DNA of 64,000 bases from Parachlamydiales bacterium (GTDB lineage Bacteria > Chlamydiota > Chlamydiia > Chlamydiales > CALOCV01). The position numbers and the translations under genes were made by a program. The notes under the pieces are model-generated. The model had not been told where the DNA came from. It saw only the letters and a list, made by a program, of their open reading frames with translations, and made no database searches. Of the stretch, positions 10,056 through 45,024 are shown piece after piece; the first letter of the stretch is position 1, and every line of letters starts with the position of its first letter. The DNA is taken from contig CALOCV010000027.1 in the NCBI GenBank assembly GCA_942491955.1, positions 250-64,249 of the forward strand. The letters run 5' to 3'.

Positions 10056-11912
10056 TTACAACTGGAGATCAAGAAATAGATTCTTATCGTTTAAAAAGTG
10101 CAGAATAATTTTTGCTCGCTCCTTATGCCATTCTGGAACTGTTTTGCTAGCTTCGATGTATTCTTTAAATATTTTCTTAAAGGCCTCCGTATCCATGATG
10201 CTCCGCACAAAGGTTTCATATTCAGTAAATGCCTTTTCTGCTTCGTCTCTTTCATTGTTTAGCAAATGAGCAAAAAATCTAAAATGGAATCGAGTAAGAG
10301 CGATTAACTCAAATGGGTGAAGCGGTTCTTTGCTATAATGAATGCTAGACATCATGCGAGAAACAAAAACACCTAATCCCACACTCACCAAGCTCCCCAA
10401 CCATTTACTCATGTCCACTACCGTTTGGACGACTTGTTGAGAGCCTGTTTGTTGTGTCAACATAACTACTTTTTCCACTTTTAGGGTTTCGTAAAATACC
10501 CTAGCACTTTCCCTTGCCATCGTCGCCATTACTTCTATTTTTTCCTTCTCCAGAGCCCCTTTCCCTTGCAATTCACTTATATGCTTAACGCACCCACTCG
10601 CCATTTTCATAGAACCTTCCATTACCATTTCTTGTACCTTCTTCACTGAGCCTTCTCCTATCATTTTTGGTACATTCTTAGGATTCTGAATAATTCCACT
10701 AAAACTGTATACGAGAATACCAGCAGCAACAGCCGATCCTCCTGCCAGAAGAAATGTCGTGCCCCACCCATCAGGGTTGTAGCCTATTTCGGCAGATAAG
10801 AGTTGTTCGGCAATTTTTTCAATAAAATTCTTACATTCCTCAGGATCATCCAGGGCAAGTCTTGCTAATTGCTCGTTAAATTGCTGGAAATGTTTTTCCT
10901 TTTTGGGAGAATTTGCGTGATGAGTAAGATAGCGAAACCATGCATACTGAATCGATAAACCAGCTCCAGTCGCAAAAAAGACTCGAGTTGGCAACTTGGG
11001 AAAAAGAGCTTTAAAAAAACTAGGTTCTGTTAAAAAATTAAGTTTCTGTACAGTCTCATAGCCCTGTCCTGGCTGTATTTGAGAAGCGCGCCTTCTTGAT
11101 CGCCCTGTGTTTTGATAATTGGGATCGGTTTCATAATCTCTATTCCCTCGTATCAATATTCCTATCACTTTTTTATGAACTCGATGATAAACAGGTGACC
11201 CGGAATTACCACTAAAGGCGTCTACGTTCGTTTCAAAATGGCAAGAGTCCTCCCCCTTAATTTCTGCATTTTCCACAAATTTCAATGGTAGCCCAGAAGG
11301 GTGTCCCAACATATACAAAGGTGTTGCTAGCGGTAATGTTTTAACGGGAAGAAGGGGAAGCGGTTTTCTTCCTTTCACCTTCCTATCCAATTTGATTAAG
11401 GCCCAATCGTTGCCCTGATCGGAAAAAAAGTGGGCAACGACTTTTTTGATCGTATATACACTATCTTCCCCAAAAGATACCGTTGTTTGATCTGGTTGAT
11501 TCTGTTGGAAATCAAAAATCACCTTTGTGTTCTTGATTCGCTGTTGATGTAATTGATTCACCCCCTCTTCACATACACAATGGCCGGCTGTTAACATCCA
11601 GCGGTCTGTGACTAAAAAAGCCGTTCCCCATCCTGGAACAGGTTCATCGCAAAACGCTTCGTTTTCTCCAAAAGGCATTTTTCTCCCTACCTGTGTTTTT
11701 AAAGTCGGCACCTGTGAAGAAAAATGATAATTTCCGTTCGGACCTTGTTGTAAGCACCCCTTCGAAACCAGACAAGCCACGCTCTTTGCTTGTTCTTGTA
11801 TGGTTTGGGCAAATGCGTGACCCGCTATTTCATGCATATTCTTTCGCTCGTCTACAGCACCGTAAATGGCTTTTGGTACTTGGAGAGAATAGCTTGCGCC
11901 TGATATATCCAT
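10056..11912 (-). CDS. Trypsin-like (V8-type) serine protease with a C-terminal helical/hydrophobic extension
   Basis: Triad motifs TAGHC, DWALIKLD, GNSGSP; no signal peptide; two hydrophobic segments in the C-terminal half. Confidence 0.85.
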   Translation of the reverse strand: MDISGASYSLQVPKAIYGAVDERKNMHEIAGHAFAQTIQEQAKSVACLVSKGCLQQGPNGNYHFSSQVPTLKTQVGRKMPFGENEAFCDEPVPGWGTAFLVTDRWMLTAGHCVCEEGVNQLHQQRIKNTKVIFDFQQNQPDQTTVSFGEDSVYTIKKVVAHFFSDQGNDWALIKLDRKVKGRKPLPLLPVKTLPLATPLYMLGHPSGLPLKFVENAEIKGEDSCHFETNVDAFSGNSGSPVYHRVHKKVIGILIRGNRDYETDPNYQNTGRSRRRASQIQPGQGYETVQKLNFLTEPSFFKALFPKLPTRVFFATGAGLSIQYAWFRYLTHHANSPKKEKHFQQFNEQLARLALDDPEECKNFIEKIAEQLLSAEIGYNPDGWGTTFLLAGGSAVAAGILVYSFSGIIQNPKNVPKMIGEGSVKKVQEMVMEGSMKMASGCVKHISELQGKGALEKEKIEVMATMARESARVFYETLKVEKVVMLTQQTGSQQVVQTVVDMSKWLGSLVSVGLGVFVSRMMSSIHYSKEPLHPFELIALTRFHFRFFAHLLNNERDEAEKAFTEYETFVRSIMDTEAFKKIFKEYIEASKTVPEWHKERAKIILHFLNDKNLFLDLQL

Positions 11913-14713: not shown

Positions 14714-14844
14714 TTACAACCGCTCGACCGAAGGGAGAGGCGTATCGCGCGAACGGCACGTTCGTGCGAGTGCATTCTTTTGAGAAAGCGGTAGCTTTCT
14801 CAAAAAAAATAACAAGCCTAGCAAGACTGACATCATAAGCCAAA

Positions 14845-14960: not shown

Positions 14961-15737
14961 CTAGATACGGAAAAGCGTTCGTGCATTCGTTGTTGTTGTT
15001 TGGGCGAGTATTTCGAGTGGGACGTTGCGTTCTTGGGCGATGCATTTTGCTGTATGGATGAGGAAAGAGGGTTCGTTGCGTTTACCGCGGTGGGGTATTG
15101 GGGCGAGGTAGGGCGTATCGGTTTCTATTAGGAGTTGATCAAGGGGGACTTCGCGAGCTATTTTGCGAAGTTCTTCACTTTTTTTGAAGGTGACGATTCC
15201 GCTGAGGGAGAGGTACCAGCCTCGTTGGACGACTTCGCGTGCCTCTTCGGGGGTTCCTGTGAAGCAGTGGAGGACGCCGGGTAGGTATTTTCCGTTTGTT
15301 TGGTATTCCTCATCGAGGATGGAGAAGAAGTCGTTGAAGGCATCGCGGCAGTGGATAACGACGGGGAGGTTGAGTTCTTTAGCGAGGTGGAGGTAGCGAC
15401 GGAGGAAGTCGCGTTGGAGGGAGGGGTTGGAGTGGTTGTAGTGGTAATCGAGACCGGTTTCGCCGATGGCTTTAAGGTATTTGTTTCTTGCGGCCTTTTC
15501 GATGATGGGGAAGGCGTTTTCTCCCTCTTTTTCGACGTCATGGGGAGTTGTTGCTGCGGTATTATGGATCCATGGGTGGGCATGGGCTAGCGAGATGCCA
15601 CGTTCGAGGGTTTTTGGTGAGGTGCAGATATTGACAACATCGGTGATACCCGCTTGTTGAGCTCGGGAGAGCAACTCTTCGACTTCGGGGTAGGCGTCAT
15701 CTTCTGTGAGGTGGGCGTGGGAGTCGATCCATTTCAT
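14961..15737 (-). CDS. tatD: TatD-family deoxyribonuclease
   Basis: DSHAH, IGETGLDY, HCR, HCF, IETDTPYLAP. Confidence 0.95.
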   Translation of the reverse strand: MKWIDSHAHLTEDDAYPEVEELLSRAQQAGITDVVNICTSPKTLERGISLAHAHPWIHNTAATTPHDVEKEGENAFPIIEKAARNKYLKAIGETGLDYHYNHSNPSLQRDFLRRYLHLAKELNLPVVIHCRDAFNDFFSILDEEYQTNGKYLPGVLHCFTGTPEEAREVVQRGWYLSLSGIVTFKKSEELRKIAREVPLDQLLIETDTPYLAPIPHRGKRNEPSFLIHTAKCIAQERNVPLEILAQTTTTNARTLFRI

Positions 15738-17872
15738 GAAGGATTTTTTACAGCTTGTATAACGATATCTGGTGTGAGTACTTGAGGCAAAATTTGTGGT
15801 TCTTTGTGATTGGATGTGTAGAGGACATAGAGAGGGATGCTATTGCGTCCATATTGTCGAAGAGCTTCTGTGACGATGGGGTCACGTTTTGTCCAATCGG
15901 CTTTCATCTTAACCACTCCTTTATCTTTGAAAGCTTGTTCCACGGAGGGGGCCGATAGGACTATATGATTGGCTTTGCAAGAGAGGCACCATTCCGCTGT
16001 GAAGTCGATCAAGACGGGCGTTCCTGCCTGGCGGAGTTCTTCGACTTTTTCTGGGGAGAAGGGGGTCCATCCGTGGGAGCGATCGGCTTGGGTGATGATG
16101 CCGTTCTCGGATCCGCCTGCCCATTCATCGGTTGTTGAGGTGTAGGTGAGGTAGCTGCCGGCGAGGAAGAAGAATCCGGTAAAGAGGTAAGCGAGGTTAC
16201 GGGAGAGTTTTTTCGACATGGGTGTGCTGAATTTGCCGTAGATCCAGGAGCCTACAGCGAAAGCAAGGAAGGCGACCATGAGGACGACGACGGCGCTGAG
16301 GTTGGTTTCGGCACCGAAGACCCAGATGAGCCATAGTACGGTTGCGAGGAGTAAGAAACCCATGATTTCTTTGAAGACGACCATCCAGGTGCCTGGCTTG
16401 GGCATGAAGCGGAGGAGTTTTGGGAAGGCGGCCAATAGGAGGTAGGGGAAGGCCATTCCTGCGCCGAGAAAAGTGAAAACGAGCATCGCTTTGGGGGCGG
16501 CGACGGTAAAGGCAAAGCCAACGGCGGTACCTAGGAATGGGCCGGTACATGGGGTAGCGATAGCGGTGGCTAAGACGCCGCTCAAGAAAGAGCTGAGATA
16601 TCCCGTTTGTTTTGCTGAGACTTGGCCTTGACCGGCAATGGATGCAACGGAGGTGCCGAGTTCGAAAACACCAAAAAGGCTTAAGCTGAAGACGAAGAGG
16701 ACTCCAGCAAGGATAGCGACAAAGAGGGGGTCTTGGAGTTGGAAGCCCCAGCCGACAGCGCTTCCGTAGGCTTGGAGGGTGAGCATGACACCAGCAAGGG
16801 TCCAGAAGGAAAGGAGGACACCGAGGGAGAAGAAGAGGCCGTGTTTAAGAGTTAGGGACCGGCTTTGTCCAGACATCTTCATGAAGCTCATCACTTTAAA
16901 GGAGAGAACGGGCAAAACGCAAGGCATGAGATTGAGGAGCATTCCTCCTGCGAAGGCAAGGATGAGGATCCAGGCGAAGCTTTCTTCGGCGACGGAGATG
17001 CCTGCACGATCGATAGTTCCTATGGCATTTTCTTGTTGGAGAAGAGAAGAGATTTCGAGGCTCTTTTGATTCCCTAGGACAAGCACTCCTTTAATTTCTT
17101 CGAGATGGGCTTTATGGGGAAGATCTTTCAGGACGATAGCTGTTTCGTTGGCATCGCTATCGTGATACGTTTCTAAGGTAGCGGCAGTTGGATCGGTAGG
17201 ATCCTCTCCTTCGGGGATGAAGACCACTTCATGGGGTTGTACGAGAGGGAGTCCATTACCGCGTAGGGTAATTCTTCCTTCAGATCGTGTGGCGTGGACG
17301 GCATCATTTTTCTCTGGGAGTTTGGCTCGCATGGTATTGAATGTGGTTTTATGTGCTTCGTGAGGGGTGGGGGTATTGGGAGAGAGGGCGATAGCGAGAT
17401 CGGCATGCGATTCTCCGGGGAGACAATTCGTATCGGAGCAGATGAGCCATCGGATATCGGCACCGATCGTTTCTGCGACACCTAATGGGGCTTCTTTGGG
17501 TGGTGTAAGCTGGGCAAGGAGGAAGGTTTCGCCACTATAACCGTATCCGATAGCGGCATCCGAGGTGAATTTTTCGGGGGTTGGCCAGTAGATGGGACCT
17601 GCTTCCCATCCTTTAGGGAGTTGCCAATCGATGGTGAGGGGCATACCGGTTTCTCCGGGATTTTTCCAATAGGTATGCCAAGATGGGGGGACTTGTATCC
17701 GTACAGCGACCCAGAAGGGGCGACCGGGTTGGGCGGTATTTTCTTCTTGAACAATTTCGATCGGAACAGATGTTTCGTTAGCGGTATTGGCGGAGAGAGG
17801 CAGGGTTGCCACGATGCCGATGAATAAAAAGGCGCAAAGAGTTAATGAAATCCATTGTTGAATTGAACGCAT
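15734..17872 (-). CDS. dsbD: Thiol:disulfide interchange protein DsbD
   Basis: WHTYWKNPG N-domain, LNLMPCVLPV and ATPCTGP TM cysteines, C-terminal thioredoxin WCLSC. Confidence 0.9.
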   Translation of the reverse strand: MRSIQQWISLTLCAFLFIGIVATLPLSANTANETSVPIEIVQEENTAQPGRPFWVAVRIQVPPSWHTYWKNPGETGMPLTIDWQLPKGWEAGPIYWPTPEKFTSDAAIGYGYSGETFLLAQLTPPKEAPLGVAETIGADIRWLICSDTNCLPGESHADLAIALSPNTPTPHEAHKTTFNTMRAKLPEKNDAVHATRSEGRITLRGNGLPLVQPHEVVFIPEGEDPTDPTAATLETYHDSDANETAIVLKDLPHKAHLEEIKGVLVLGNQKSLEISSLLQQENAIGTIDRAGISVAEESFAWILILAFAGGMLLNLMPCVLPVLSFKVMSFMKMSGQSRSLTLKHGLFFSLGVLLSFWTLAGVMLTLQAYGSAVGWGFQLQDPLFVAILAGVLFVFSLSLFGVFELGTSVASIAGQGQVSAKQTGYLSSFLSGVLATAIATPCTGPFLGTAVGFAFTVAAPKAMLVFTFLGAGMAFPYLLLAAFPKLLRFMPKPGTWMVVFKEIMGFLLLATVLWLIWVFGAETNLSAVVVLMVAFLAFAVGSWIYGKFSTPMSKKLSRNLAYLFTGFFFLAGSYLTYTSTTDEWAGGSENGIITQADRSHGWTPFSPEKVEELRQAGTPVLIDFTAEWCLSCKANHIVLSAPSVEQAFKDKGVVKMKADWTKRDPIVTEALRQYGRNSIPLYVLYTSNHKEPQILPQVLTPDIVIQAVKNPS

Positions 17873-24342: not shown

Positions 24343-24415
<73 letters not shown>

Positions 24416-25568: not shown

Positions 25569-26188
25569 TTTTCCCAACGTCGAGCAAATCCGACAATTCT
25601 CCTCGCGATGCCCCCTGGCGGGACAGTATTCTCGTGCATAGTAGATGATTTGAAGATGGAGGCGATTCCAAACTTTTTTGGGAAAACAAGCTTTAAGGTC
25701 TCTCTCCGTCACTTCAACGCTTCTTCCCTCCGATAAGCCCCATCGCTTTGCGCAACGGTGAATATGGGTGTCTACAGGAAAGGCCACTTGATGAAACGCT
25801 TGGGAAAGGACGACCGACGCCGTCTTGTGTCCCACACCTGGTAGTACCTCCAATTCTTCAAAGGTAGTGGGCACCCCTCCTTCATGTTTTTCTAATAACT
25901 GTTTCGAAAGCTCCCAAATTGCCCTCCCCTTGCGAGGCGCTAAGCCGCATGGTCGAATGATCGAAACGATCTCGTCAACAGAGAGCATGACCATTTCCTC
26001 AGGCGTTGCCGCTCGGGCAAACAAAAGAGGCGTGATGGTATTCACTCGTGCATCGGTGCATTGAGCCGAGAGAACGACGGCGATGAGCAGAGTATAAGGG
26101 TCGCTGTGCTGCAATGGAATGGCGGGCTTAGGGTAGAGCTCCTGCAAAATTTTTTGGATAATAGAGGCTCTTTTTTCTTCTCTTTCAT
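25551..26188 (-). CDS. nth: Endonuclease III; 1-nt frameshift near the start
   Basis: LLIAVVLSAQCTD, LPGVGHKTA, VDTH, C-x6-C-x2-C. ATG at 26188 is 1 nt out of frame across an A6 run (T6 at 26171-26176); correcting it gives MKEKKKRASIIQKILQELYP. Confidence 0.95.
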
Positions 26189-26214
26189 GGATTCTCCACG
26201 CATTGGGGTCAGCA

Positions 26215-26277
26215 TTGGGGTCAGGCCTGACATTCGGACATTTGGAACAAATGTCCGAATGTCAGGCCTGACCCCAA
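26215..26277. repeat. 63-bp perfect palindrome (REPIN-like), dispersed copy
   Basis: 30-bp arms TTGGGGTCAGGCCTGACATTCGGACATTTG, GAA loop; identical to 43061-43123 and 44077-44139. Confidence 0.95.
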
Positions 26278-26280
26278 ACA

Positions 26281-27645
26281 TTATTTCCCTATACACAATT
26301 GCGAAAAGATCGATTTGAGAATATCTTCTGTTACATCCGCTCCGGTAACACTTCCAAGATGCTCCAACGATTCTCGAAGGTCCATGAGCAATAGTTCTGG
26401 AGAACGCTCCTCTTCCATTCCTTCAACGACCTTTTGCAAAGCCTCCACAGCGGCTACGAGTGCTTGATAGTGGCGTACCTGGGTCAATACAACCTCTTCT
26501 TTCGATGGAGGCCCCTTTTTCCACAAGAGCTTTTCCATCTCGGCTCGCAACGCATCCAATCCTTGTTTTTCTTTTGCCGAAAGAGCCACGACATGGGGCA
26601 ATGCAAGAGAGCAAGTCGTATTTTGGATGTCGATTTTATTCCATATGGCAATCGTTTTCTCTGGAGATACCTCTTGTAACAACGTCTCTTCTTCTTGACA
26701 AAGAGGTCGGCTCGCATCAAGGACGAGAAAGAGGAGATCGGCCTCTTGAATCACCTCTTTTGTCCTCCTTATCCCCTCTTTCTCAATCTCTTCCTCAGAG
26801 TGGCGAATCCCCGCTGTGTCAATCACTCGAAAGTGGAATCCTTGAAAACGCATGTGATCCTCAACCAAATCGCGCGTCGTCCCTGCTACTGAGGAGACAA
26901 TCGCACGCTCCTTGTCAAGCAACGCATTCATCAAGGACGATTTCCCTACATTGGGCGCCCCAACAAGACAAAGAGAGAGCCCTTCATGAAGAACCTTCCC
27001 TTGATCAAAGGTGGCTACCAACGCCTGTATCTCCTGTTGTATATTCTGAAGAGAGGTAACCACCTCCTCAAACGAAGCAAAAGCCAAGCCCTCTTCAGGA
27101 AAATCAACCCACGCCTCAAAAAGAGCTGCTGTCTTGGTAAGTGCTTGCTGAAACCCTGTGACTCTTTCTGATAAACGTCCATGTAATTGTTGTTCCGCAG
27201 CAATGAGTGCTTCGTCGCTCCGCGCTCCGATAAGCGCCTGCACTGCCTCCGCTTGAGCCAAGTCGATCTTCCCATTGCGGAAACTGCGGTAGGTGAATTC
27301 TCCTGGACGAGCTGGACGGGCACCAGCAGATAACACGACCTCTAATACGCGCCGAGAGATCAAGCTCCCTCCGTGGCAATGGATCTCAATGGTATCTTCT
27401 CCGGTGTACGATCGCGGCGCTTTCATAACGAGCAACAAGACGCGATCGACACTCTCTCCTTCTAAGGTGCGTACTTCTCCATAATGGACCGTATGCGTAA
27501 CAAAAGAGGAGATAGAACCAGAGAAAATGCGATCGGCAATAGCGATGGCTTCTTTGCCAGAAATGCGAATGACAGCGATCCCCCCTTCTCCTGGAGGAGT
27601 GGCGATAGCAGCTATCGTTTCTTGATCAGAAAAAAACAATCCCAT
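26281..27645 (-). CDS. mnmE: tRNA modification GTPase MnmE (TrmE)
   Basis: TIAAIATPPGEGG, GAPNVGKSS, GTTRD, DTAG, NKID, C-terminal CIGK. Confidence 0.97.
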   Translation of the reverse strand: MGLFFSDQETIAAIATPPGEGGIAVIRISGKEAIAIADRIFSGSISSFVTHTVHYGEVRTLEGESVDRVLLLVMKAPRSYTGEDTIEIHCHGGSLISRRVLEVVLSAGARPARPGEFTYRSFRNGKIDLAQAEAVQALIGARSDEALIAAEQQLHGRLSERVTGFQQALTKTAALFEAWVDFPEEGLAFASFEEVVTSLQNIQQEIQALVATFDQGKVLHEGLSLCLVGAPNVGKSSLMNALLDKERAIVSSVAGTTRDLVEDHMRFQGFHFRVIDTAGIRHSEEEIEKEGIRRTKEVIQEADLLFLVLDASRPLCQEEETLLQEVSPEKTIAIWNKIDIQNTTCSLALPHVVALSAKEKQGLDALRAEMEKLLWKKGPPSKEEVVLTQVRHYQALVAAVEALQKVVEGMEEERSPELLLMDLRESLEHLGSVTGADVTEDILKSIFSQLCIGK

Positions 27646-43060: not shown

Positions 43061-43123
43061 TTGGGGTCAGGCCTGACATTCGGACATTTGGAACAAATGT
43101 CCGAATGTCAGGCCTGACCCCAA
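43061..43123. repeat. 63-bp perfect palindrome at the 3' side of the transposase
   Basis: Identical to 26215-26277; encodes the transposase C-terminus WGQA*. Confidence 0.95.
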
Positions 43124-44055
43124 ACGACTTCCCGCAAATCAGCTATTTCTTCTGAAAGGATTTGTGAGGAATAACACTTTTGTTCTAGCCGATAGGCTAA
43201 CTTACTTAATCCACTAGAATCTCGAGAAAGGAATGCAGCAAGTTCTTCAAGAGACAAGTTATCCGACTCTCGTACAAATAGAGCTAATACTGCACGCGCT
43301 TGTGCTGTTACTCGATTCTTTCCTGGCGCGCGTACAGCTTCCGGTAAAAGATCGAAACGATTGCAAACAAGAGTAACAAGTTGTGACAAATCAATTTTTC
43401 GTTTTTGACATCCATTTCTATGGATTCCTTCCATGCATTCTCCCACAAATTTTTCATCGCCGAGAATCCCTTCCACGAGCCCTCTATTTACAGAACAATC
43501 TTTTTTAAAATTTTCTTTTTTTAAAATGAAATGATGATACATTTTAATCGCTTCATTTTTCGTCTCTCCAAATTTTTTTAAAATATGATTACATGTCAAC
43601 CATACATAATAATCTAAAAGCAAATACGCTCTATGGCTGCTCCACATATATTGTTCTGCTGATTGTACTAAACGGGCTCGAACAGGATTGAGATGAATAT
43701 ATCGAATCAACTCCGTAAGATACCGATTTTCATCAATGAGAACAGATTTAAATCGACCTTGAAATAGATGCCCAATACGAGCATATTTTCTATTGATATA
43801 CCGCGTATACCGGAAAGAAAGATGTTGTGCGATTTGTGAAACACTCATCTGATTAACCTGAACGGCAAGATGCACATGATTTCTCATAAAACAAAAAGAA
43901 TGAATACGATGACCAAACCGCTCCACTCCTTCTTGTATCAACAAACACATGCGGCAACGGTCCTCATCCGAAAAGAAAATAGGCTGTTTATCGTTGCCTC
44001 TTAGTATGACATGATAAAAAGCAAAAGGAAGATGAAAACGTCGTTTTCGTGCCAT
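43108..44055 (-). mobile_element. REP-associated tyrosine (Y1/HUH) transposase with DnaA-domain-IV-like C-terminus
   Basis: YHVILRGN, NHVHL (HUH), GHLFQGRFKS, YIHLNPVRA, WSS; tail ...AQARAVLALFVRE..LSLEELAAFLSRD resembles the DnaA C-terminal HTH. Confidence 0.9.
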
Positions 44056-44076
44056 AGAACGAAAAGATTTTGGTGT

Positions 44077-44139
44077 TTGGGGTCAGGCCTGACATTCGGA
44101 CATTTGGAACAAATGTCCGAATGTCAGGCCTGACCCCAA
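44077..44139. repeat. 63-bp perfect palindrome at the 5' side of the transposase
   Basis: Identical to the other two copies; 21 bp upstream of the ATG. Confidence 0.95.
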
Positions 44140-44770: not shown

Positions 44771-44858
44771 AGATAGCTCCTTATTTTACCACTTGACACT
44801 CCACCCTTTCTTCCTTATAAGGCAAAACTGGATCGCTTGTATAGGGATTTTTTCCTTA

Positions 44859-45019
44859 TACTAATGGAAAGAAATAAAGAGACACATTGAATTCAAAATT
44901 TTTTCGAGAAAATTGTTTTTGGAGATCGATGCGAACTCTTATGAGTTTGCGAGATCGAAAAATCGATTTTAAGGAAAAAGATGAATATGAATTTGTCTCT
45001 TTATTTCTTTCCATTGGTA
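44859..45019 (+). mobile_element. MITE family A' (161 bp), diverged relative of family A
   Basis: TIR TAC(T/C)AATGGAAAGAAATAAAGAGA (1 mismatch), TTA on both sides; interior aligns with 14554-14713. Confidence 0.85.
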
Positions 45020-45024
45020 TTACT

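Follow-up and report, generated by a model that had tools for sequence, protein, structure and literature searches.

RAYT genes (encoding REP-associated tyrosine transposases, where REP stands for repetitive extragenic palindromic sequence) have relatives whose flanks are built differently. TIRYT genes are RAYT-like genes flanked by terminal inverted repeats (TIRs) and not by REPs, gene and TIRs together forming a TIRtron; many TIRs start with GGGGWSAS, there are TIRs that overlap the gene at its 3′ end and TIRs that are self-complementary or double palindromic, and they occur in single, dimeric or grouped form (Di Nocera, 2013, BMC Genomics 14:522; PMC3733652). In a classification of the TnpA_Y1 proteins, 20 of 26 TIRYTs fall in subclass 2.1, which takes in 291 of the 292 group 1 RAYTs of Bertels and is present in 14.9% of strains (Quentin, 2018; PMC6006769). 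The C-terminal region of its subgroup 2.1.2 resembles Bac_DnaA_C, the helix-turn-helix (HTH) there being similar to Bac_DnaA_C, HTH_23 or HTH_28; no REP-like structures were found near the 2.1.2 genes, and the TIR consensus is unlike a DnaA box, a new DNA target or targeting to the replication fork being suggested (Quentin, 2018). Of the RAYT groups, group 1 has the most members and the widest distribution, and it shows the most traits of insertion sequences (IS) (Bertels, 2017; PMC5581495). Group 1 RAYTs have also been viewed as co-opted single-copy genes, with REPINs (hairpin-forming doublets of REPs) associated with groups 2 and 3 only (Bertels and Rainey, 10.1101/2021.07.10.451892). Here we describe a 315-residue Y1 transposase gene lying between two palindromes in a 64,000-nucleotide stretch of contig CALOCV010000027.1 from a Parachlamydiales bacterium; this stretch is called the window, and all copy counts of doublets and genes in the window cover these 64 kb.

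With a probability of about 0.85, we assign this element to the TIRtrons, as a TIRYT gene (RAYT group 1, TnpA_Y1 subclass 2.1) with terminal inverted repeats, carried by an environmental bacterium of the Chlamydiota, and the assignment combined with the repeat anatomy set out below is nearly as probable. The class is already described under these three names and is very common, and the chlamydial element is an additional member of it. The preliminary description of this DNA had not known the class in a chlamydial genome, or the role of the DnaA-like tail, to be characterised: the class itself is covered by the three papers cited above (PMC3733652, PMC6006769 and PMC5581495) and has 5281 homologues, and for the tail the point stands. 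Full-text searches retrieved no later literature on TIRYTs or on Bac_DnaA_C in transposases, the consulted portion of the supplementary text of Quentin (2018) names no chlamydial genera, and an explicit literature record of the TIRYT class in Chlamydiota was not found. Relative to the cited papers, three things appear to be new in the sequences compared here: arms that are identical at 28 of 28 positions beside genes that are about 67% identical, an arm built of a tip and two co-changing units, and a tail helix that appears to follow those units.

At the level of sequence, the element shows every defining trait of the TIRYT class. The gene is a RAYT-like Y1 gene with TIRs instead of REP hairpins, the tip of its repeats, GGGGTCAG, fits GGGGWSAS, its 3′ TIR overlaps the end of the gene, and single, dimeric and grouped repeats are known from both; the window element differs in its chlamydial host, in having perfect head-to-head doublets at both ends, and in the co-varying 8-nt units and outer tip repeats of the window and its relatives, which are unmentioned in the consulted sections of Di Nocera (2013). 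With subclass 2.1.2 and group 1 it shares a protein of about 315 residues, the class 2 signature Y-x3-NP, a C-terminal HTH like Bac_DnaA_C, a patchy distribution across many phyla and the occasional near-identical duplicate; unlike those genes, the window gene is flanked by hairpin-forming doublets, and another doublet stands alone.

The catalytic core of the protein matched Pfam Y1_Tnp with an E-value of 1.4e-15, and the NCBIfam models REP_Tyr_transpos and transpos_IS200 scored 64.8 bits (equivalog cut-off, 80) and 23 bits (cut-off, 55), respectively. In an alignment of the window protein with 39 homologues (40 sequences), H60 and H62 of the HUH motif, Y119, N123 and P124 were invariant, the latter motif reading Y119-I-H-L-N123-P124, and the window protein kept 29 of the 29 invariant columns. 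An AlphaFold model built on this alignment had a mean pLDDT (predicted local distance difference test) of 90.7 and a pTM (predicted template modelling score) of 0.72. Compared with the PDB, the core of the model was closest to E. coli TnpA_REP (4er8_A, E 5e-8, template modelling (TM) score 0.75 on the target), followed by the transposases of IS608 and ISDra2; 2xma and 2a6m were among the fold matches. The preliminary description had recognised an intact RAYT-family Y1/HUH enzyme between two identical 63-bp palindromes, and its coordinates, its family assignment and the integrity of the catalytic residues all hold. The catalytic fold and residues are shared with the IS200/IS605 TnpA enzymes, and by analogy their single-strand peel-and-paste chemistry is the likely model for the window enzyme. 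Those elements, however, have distinct left and right subterminal hairpins, no TIRs, and enzymes of 130–150 aa without an HTH tail, whereas the ends of the window element are identical inverted repeats and its protein has 315 aa.

The tail was matched to DnaA in several ways. A profile search for Bac_DnaA_C, the check named in the preliminary description, gave 28.7 bits (E 1.4e-6, aa 226–281), slightly under the gathering score of 31.5 bits, and TIGR00362 (DnaA) aligned to aa 204–309 (E 1e-6, 28.2 bits against a cut-off of 343.9) with the last ~105 positions of the model only. In the structural comparison, the likeness to DnaA domain IV that had been proposed goes far beyond the sub-threshold Pfam match: the modelled tail superposes on domain IV bound to DnaA-box DNA (3pvp_B) with a TM-score of 0.91 and a root-mean-square deviation of 1.5 Å over 95 columns, and on the domain IV-DNA complex 1j1v_A with a TM-score of 0.86, so that the whole domain is matched. 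A sequence search with the tail alone retrieved the DNA-binding domain of M. tuberculosis DnaA (E 7.8e-5). The tail retains the basic loop PGK..R and, of the DnaA signature, the Arg-Asp; its recognition helix is RDSSGLSKLAYRLE, in which RDHTTV of DnaA has become RDSSGL, replacing the His-Thr-Thr that we take to be the base-reading residues. The modelled tail thus has a true DnaA domain IV fold, in which the base-reading positions are changed. The protein otherwise differs from DnaA in having no AAA+ domain and in that its target DNA holds no DnaA box. From these comparisons, the enzyme is very probably an IS200/RAYT-type HUH/Y1 single-strand DNA nuclease-ligase core joined to a DnaA domain IV HTH tail.

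This architecture is widespread. A large protein search returned 5281 homologues at E<=1e-5, the closest non-self one being 63% identical. Nearly all of the best 120 of the 5281 are 300–330 aa long, most of these 120 carry PF01797 and PF08299, and some are labelled ‘REP element-mobilizing transposase RayT’ or ‘transposase’, with examples from metagenome-assembled genomes (MAGs) of Simkaniaceae and Verrucomicrobia; a Bac_DnaA_C match was present in 38 of the 40 homologues sampled. The product recorded for the gene, P0001, has 280 aa and begins at Met36 of the 315-aa open reading frame (ORF), leaving out the N-terminal part encoded by 43951–44055. Because all the homologues open with MARRxRFH, which is also how the 315-aa ORF opens, the start on record is probably too far downstream and the product on record too short.

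The features of the element are collected in Table 1. The two palindromes that flank the gene agree fully in sequence and in orientation, with arms of 30–31 nt and a 3-nt loop. The preliminary description of this arrangement was accurate, including the absence of a GTAG tag and the position of the stop codon (TGA, 43108–43110) inside the downstream palindrome, apart from a third identical copy that it had overlooked; the three copies agree at 63 of 63 positions, and one of the three is solo. Doublet A lies 21 nt upstream of the transposase ATG and 4 nt past the stop of the upstream 208-aa gene, doublet B lies 19 nt upstream of the ATG of a HAD hydrolase gene, and the solo doublet, 17 kb from the element, lies in the short gap between mnmE (stop, 26281–26283) and nth. 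Each doublet starts 2–4 nt past the stop of its upstream co-directional gene. The palindromes recur far above chance: in the window there are 6 copies of the 12-mer GTCAGGCCTGAC, with 0.09 expected, and the central 29-mer of the doublet 3 times against 0 expected, and GGGGWSAS 7 times against 1.27 expected, every one of these in a doublet or in the tip repeat.

Table 1. Positions of the element, its repeats and the short direct repeats of the arm tip
Feature	Sequence	Position	Strand	Basis or remark
Probable TIRYT / group 1 RAYT gene, 315 aa, stop included	window	43108..44055	-	ORF list, Pfam, NCBIfam, homologue start MARRxRFH
Y1/HUH catalytic core, aa 14-121	window	43693..44016	-	Pfam, invariant alignment columns, fold match
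HUH motif H60-V-H62	window	43870-43878	-	invariant alignment columns
Catalytic Tyr119 of the Y-x3-NP motif	window	43699-43701	-	invariant alignment columns
DnaA domain IV-like HTH tail, about aa 204-313	window	43117..43446	-	TIGR00362, fold match, sequence match
Doublet A, 63-bp perfect palindrome	window	44077..44139		arm 44079-44106, 3-nt loop, inverted arm 44110-44137
Doublet B, identical 63-bp palindrome	window	43061..43123		arms 43063-43090 and 43094-43121
Solo doublet, third identical 63-bp palindrome	window	26215..26277		mnmE-nth gap, no transposase beside it
Partial copy of the outer arm tip, cattGGGGTCAG	window	26201..26212	+	direct repeat in front of the solo doublet
Tip repeats	L033	10983-11020		
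Tip repeats	L035	about 10959-10995		
Tip repeats	L038	about 260-305		
Tip repeats	L039	about 2860-2930		

Each 63-bp palindrome is a head-to-head doublet of a 28-nt arm, GGGGTCAGGCCTGACATTCGGACATTTG, which reads GGGGTCAG-GCC-TGACATTC-GGACATTT-G. Folded as single-stranded DNA (ssDNA), a single arm reaches -1.7 kcal/mol (z 0.2), no better than shuffled sequence, and the doublet forms a perfect 31-bp stem of -39.6 kcal/mol (z -16). The 12-bp palindrome GTCAGGCCTGAC, described earlier as a key feature of each arm, is present in all six arms of the window; it is broken in the relatives L038 (GTCAGGCCGGAC), L041 (GTCAGACGGGAC) and L039 (GTCAGGCTTGCG), and as ssDNA its stem has just 4 bp, so that it was rejected as a recognition hairpin. 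Because the single arm is unfolded and because the same arm flanks RAYTs whose proteins are only about 60–62% identical, the functional unit, on this comparative evidence, is the 28-nt terminal inverted repeat rather than a REP hairpin or the 63-bp palindrome.

These RAYT homologues (L003, L004, L008, L017, L026 and L032) have a common layout, with one arm about 40–80 nt upstream of the ATG, or 40–100 nt across relatives in general, and one inverted arm over the stop codon; many homologues end in the peptide MSECQA because the inverted arm overlaps the stop codon. Between the window and these relatives the arms are identical at 28 of 28 positions, against only about 67% identity for the DNA of the genes. 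By comparison with this layout, both ends of the gene in the window are converted to head-to-head doublets: the gene runs into doublet B through the outer end of the doublet and uses the same TGA, giving the C-terminus VVWGQA, compared with ..FQMSECQA in the relatives. Directly outside the arms of its TIRtron, L003 also carries a second, unrelated repeat family of about 50–70 nt (1904–1972 and 3309–3377, also 1500–1535), an imperfect palindrome (GGAAATGTCTGGGGCCAGTTCTTGCG...) that brackets the element.

Arms were further located by scanning metagenomes with the 21-nt arm core and genomes with a 23-nt arm pattern. The metagenome scan returned 28 loci, in about two thirds of which the available flank holds no RAYT homologue; since three of them (L005, L023 and L029) show kilobases on each side and are RAYT-free within several kb, solo arms exist. 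Arms in direct tandem were found in L010, L017, L026, L027 and L032. Head-to-head doublets are rare, occurring in the window, in L001/L031 (another chlamydial MAG), L009, L022 and L023. The genome scan returned two loci only, both from other genomes. One single arm, identical to the chlamydial arm at 26 of 28 nt, lies on a MAG contig labelled Dehalococcoidia (L002, 777–802), and reflects either spread of the arm type across phyla or a binning error. The doublet of L001 (7235–7296, on the contig of L031) lies between a gene like the type III secretion ATPase and the next gene; it is built of the same arm with unit 2 reading GGATATT on both arms around a 6-nt centre, the changes being compensatory, and the hairpin is kept.

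A relative whose protein is 50% identical to that of the window indicates that the element can be copied whole. L035 holds two arm-gene-arm copies (9882–10975 and 15310–16403, spaced by 5.4 kb) that are 99.45% identical over 1095 nt, the likeness ending about 17 nt beyond each arm. Because these near-identical copies sit in different flanks, the arm-gene-arm unit can, as judged from this contig, be copied as a unit in the manner of an insertion sequence. The same contig carries an extra solo arm at 14758, of another unit type (GACACA/GACACT). The doublet consists of an arm, 3 nt and an inverted arm with the inner ends facing; because this is what would be left of the whole element after loss of its interior, the doublet would be a non-autonomous derivative resembling a REPIN or a miniature inverted-repeat transposable element. 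The three identical doublets of the window are a small counter-example, in form, to the restriction of REPINs to groups 2 and 3. Directly outside the arms of L033, L035, L038, L039, L041 and L042, and outside the solo doublet of the window, we observed short direct repeats consisting of 4–5 nt plus GGGGTCA(G) (positions for five of these sites are given in Table 1). These outer tip repeats may have been left behind by rounds of cutting and rejoining at the tip, or may have arisen by slippage.

The presence of one RAYT gene flanked by hairpin-forming doublets, with an identical solo doublet elsewhere, and of a core whose nearest fold is 4er8, would also be expected of a classical REPIN-RAYT system of groups 2 and 3 as in Escherichia and Pseudomonas, in which a domesticated single-copy enzyme acts on REPs that each form their own ssDNA hairpin, and the REPINs are vertically inherited. 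The HUH/Y1 fold, flanking inverted repeats and doublet hairpins are indeed common to E. coli TnpA_REP with its REPs and bacterial interspersed mosaic elements, to Pseudomonas REPIN-RAYT and to the window. However, a single arm of the window forms no stable hairpin, its repeats carry neither the GTAG nor the CGTC tag, and the inner palindrome of 12 bp has been lost from relatives. The protein has twice the length and bears the DnaA-like HTH tail typical of subclass 2.1, its REP_Tyr_transpos score is below the cut-off, and a relative was duplicated as a whole unit. We consider a classical REPIN-RAYT system unlikely on these grounds.

Returning to the TIRtron assignment, we compared the arms across the relatives. 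The tip GGGGTCAG is constant, including in distant relatives of 47–51% identity (L033–L042). It is followed by a 3-nt spacer (GCC, ACG or GCT) and then by two tandem 8-nt units, which carry the same substitutions in both units in each of five arm types. Units 1 and 2 read TGACATTC and GGACATTT in the clade of the window, TGACACTA and TGACACTT in L033, L034 and L040, TGGCATTC and GGGCATTT in L035, L036 and L037, TGCAATTC and TGCAATTT in L027, and TGCGTAAT and TGCGTTTT in L039, the tip remaining unchanged throughout. The helix of the tail that matches RDHTTVLHA of DnaA differs between unit types, at SKLA, SKQV, SKAA or SRLS: RDxSGLSKLAxRLE goes with units of type GACATT, RDASSLSKQVARLN (SKQV) with GGCATT, REASG[IM]SKAAARLE with GACACT, and RDLSTLSRLSYAIE (SRLS) with GCGT... 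The homologues P0113 and P0099 both have the GACACT type of TIR despite a protein identity of 58%. This pattern is suggestive of two separate roles: the invariant tip would be read by the conserved core, and the variable units by the variable tail.

A mechanism can be proposed on this basis. In duplex DNA, be it ordinary double-stranded DNA or the stem made when two inverted arms pair in ssDNA, the tail would bind the tandem pair of 8-nt units; in a doublet, such a stem would form locally. The conserved Y1 core would then recognise the invariant GGGGTCAG tip, which lies at the foot of the stem, and cut there, and the element or its doublets would be moved by a single-strand cut-and-rejoin reaction. 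As a whole, we regard this mechanism, drawn from sequence comparison, as possible but short of probable. More tentative again is the fuller proposal that the tail serves as a specificity module, reading the co-evolving units in the paired-arm duplex and placing the core on GGGGTCAG, and that this lineage has made a REPIN-like population of doublets.

Several points weigh against the TIRtron assignment or the mechanism built on it. The placement in subclass 2.1 and group 1 is based on shared features. To our knowledge, there is no biochemistry for any member of the TIRYT or group 1 RAYT class. Known Y1 enzymes act on ssDNA hairpins, so that recognition of a duplex is a proposal. The correlation between helix and units was seen in just four to five lineages, with phylogeny as a confounder, and units could also match because a tandem duplication had evolved in concert. 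The window holds three doublets and one TIRYT gene, so that a repeat population, which in REPIN-RAYT systems of groups 2 and 3 comprises dozens to hundreds of REP or REPIN copies per genome beside a single-copy RAYT, is hypothetical here. Finally, the doublets on both sides of the gene, with the ATG 21 nt from a 31-bp hairpin across a gap without a promoter (the promoter and terminator scan found no sigma-70-like site between doublet A and the ATG), might mean that the gene is expressed at a low level or not at all.

A host function was also weighed, in which the gene would be domesticated and act at the replication origin or fork, the tail being directed to DnaA boxes or to proteins of replication, with the palindromes as leftovers. 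Fork targeting through the DnaA-like domain was raised by Quentin (2018), group 1 is viewed as co-opted single-copy genes (Bertels and Rainey, 10.1101/2021.07.10.451892), and the window holds a single copy of the gene. However, the DnaA-box scan found no box in or adjoining the element, and the 8 boxes of the whole window are at chance level (5.65 expected). The His-Thr-Thr of DnaA is replaced, conservation is much higher in the arms than in the gene, the recognition helix changes along with the arm units, and three doublets identical at every position point to recent copying. Taken together, these observations leave the host function with a slim chance. The remaining alternative, that the palindromes serve the host as regulatory or RNA elements such as terminators or mRNA stabilisers between two of which the gene landed by chance, would fit their position just past the stops of upstream co-directional genes and the very stable RNA or DNA hairpin of each doublet, but a U-tract is absent, the promoter and terminator scan found no terminator-like site, no Rfam family lies over the repeats, and the same arm accompanies RAYT homologues in one constant arrangement, stop-codon overlap included, on many contigs that are unrelated, an arm-gene association by which this highly improbable account is already largely refuted.

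The placement of the window in a chlamydial genome, made earlier from the letters alone, is supported by its genes: the best named relatives of a neighbouring class I aldolase, at 74–79% identity, come from MAGs of Rhabdochlamydiaceae, Simkaniaceae, Chlamydiales and Anoxychlamydiales, and this sequence evidence supports an environmental bacterium of the Chlamydiota as the source. The GC content of the transposase gene is 38.1%, compared with 45.4% for the window, which puts it at the 7th percentile of windows; recent horizontal transfer was considered on this ground and dropped, the 7th percentile being too weak. Beside the solo doublet, nth (26171–26188, minus strand) has apparently lost its natural start, the ATG at 26186–26188 being one base out of frame; one extra A in the A6 run at 26171–26176 restores MKEKKKRASIIQKILQELYPKP.. 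running into Nth. Either the assembly has an error in this homopolymer or the frameshift is real; failing that, the TTG at 26147 is the start of nth. A tRNA gene (24343–24415, minus strand; RF00005, 73 bits), the sole Rfam match in the window, lies 1.8 kb from the solo doublet. At 44858–45020 there is an imperfect inverted repeat with 71-nt arms that are 72% complementary and 21 nt apart, overlapping the start of a 304-aa ORF at 44887 that has no Pfam match.

As a catalogue entry, the element is ordinary, another TIRYT or group 1 RAYT. Its value is that of a clean, compact example, whose arm anatomy and correlation between tail helix and arm units offer a direct and cheap experimental handle. 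Through it, one could learn what use a single-strand transposase makes of a DNA-binding domain for double strands, and whether group 1 RAYTs can drive REPIN-like repeats. If true, a REPIN-like population of doublets would contradict the statement that limits REPINs to group 2 and 3 RAYTs.

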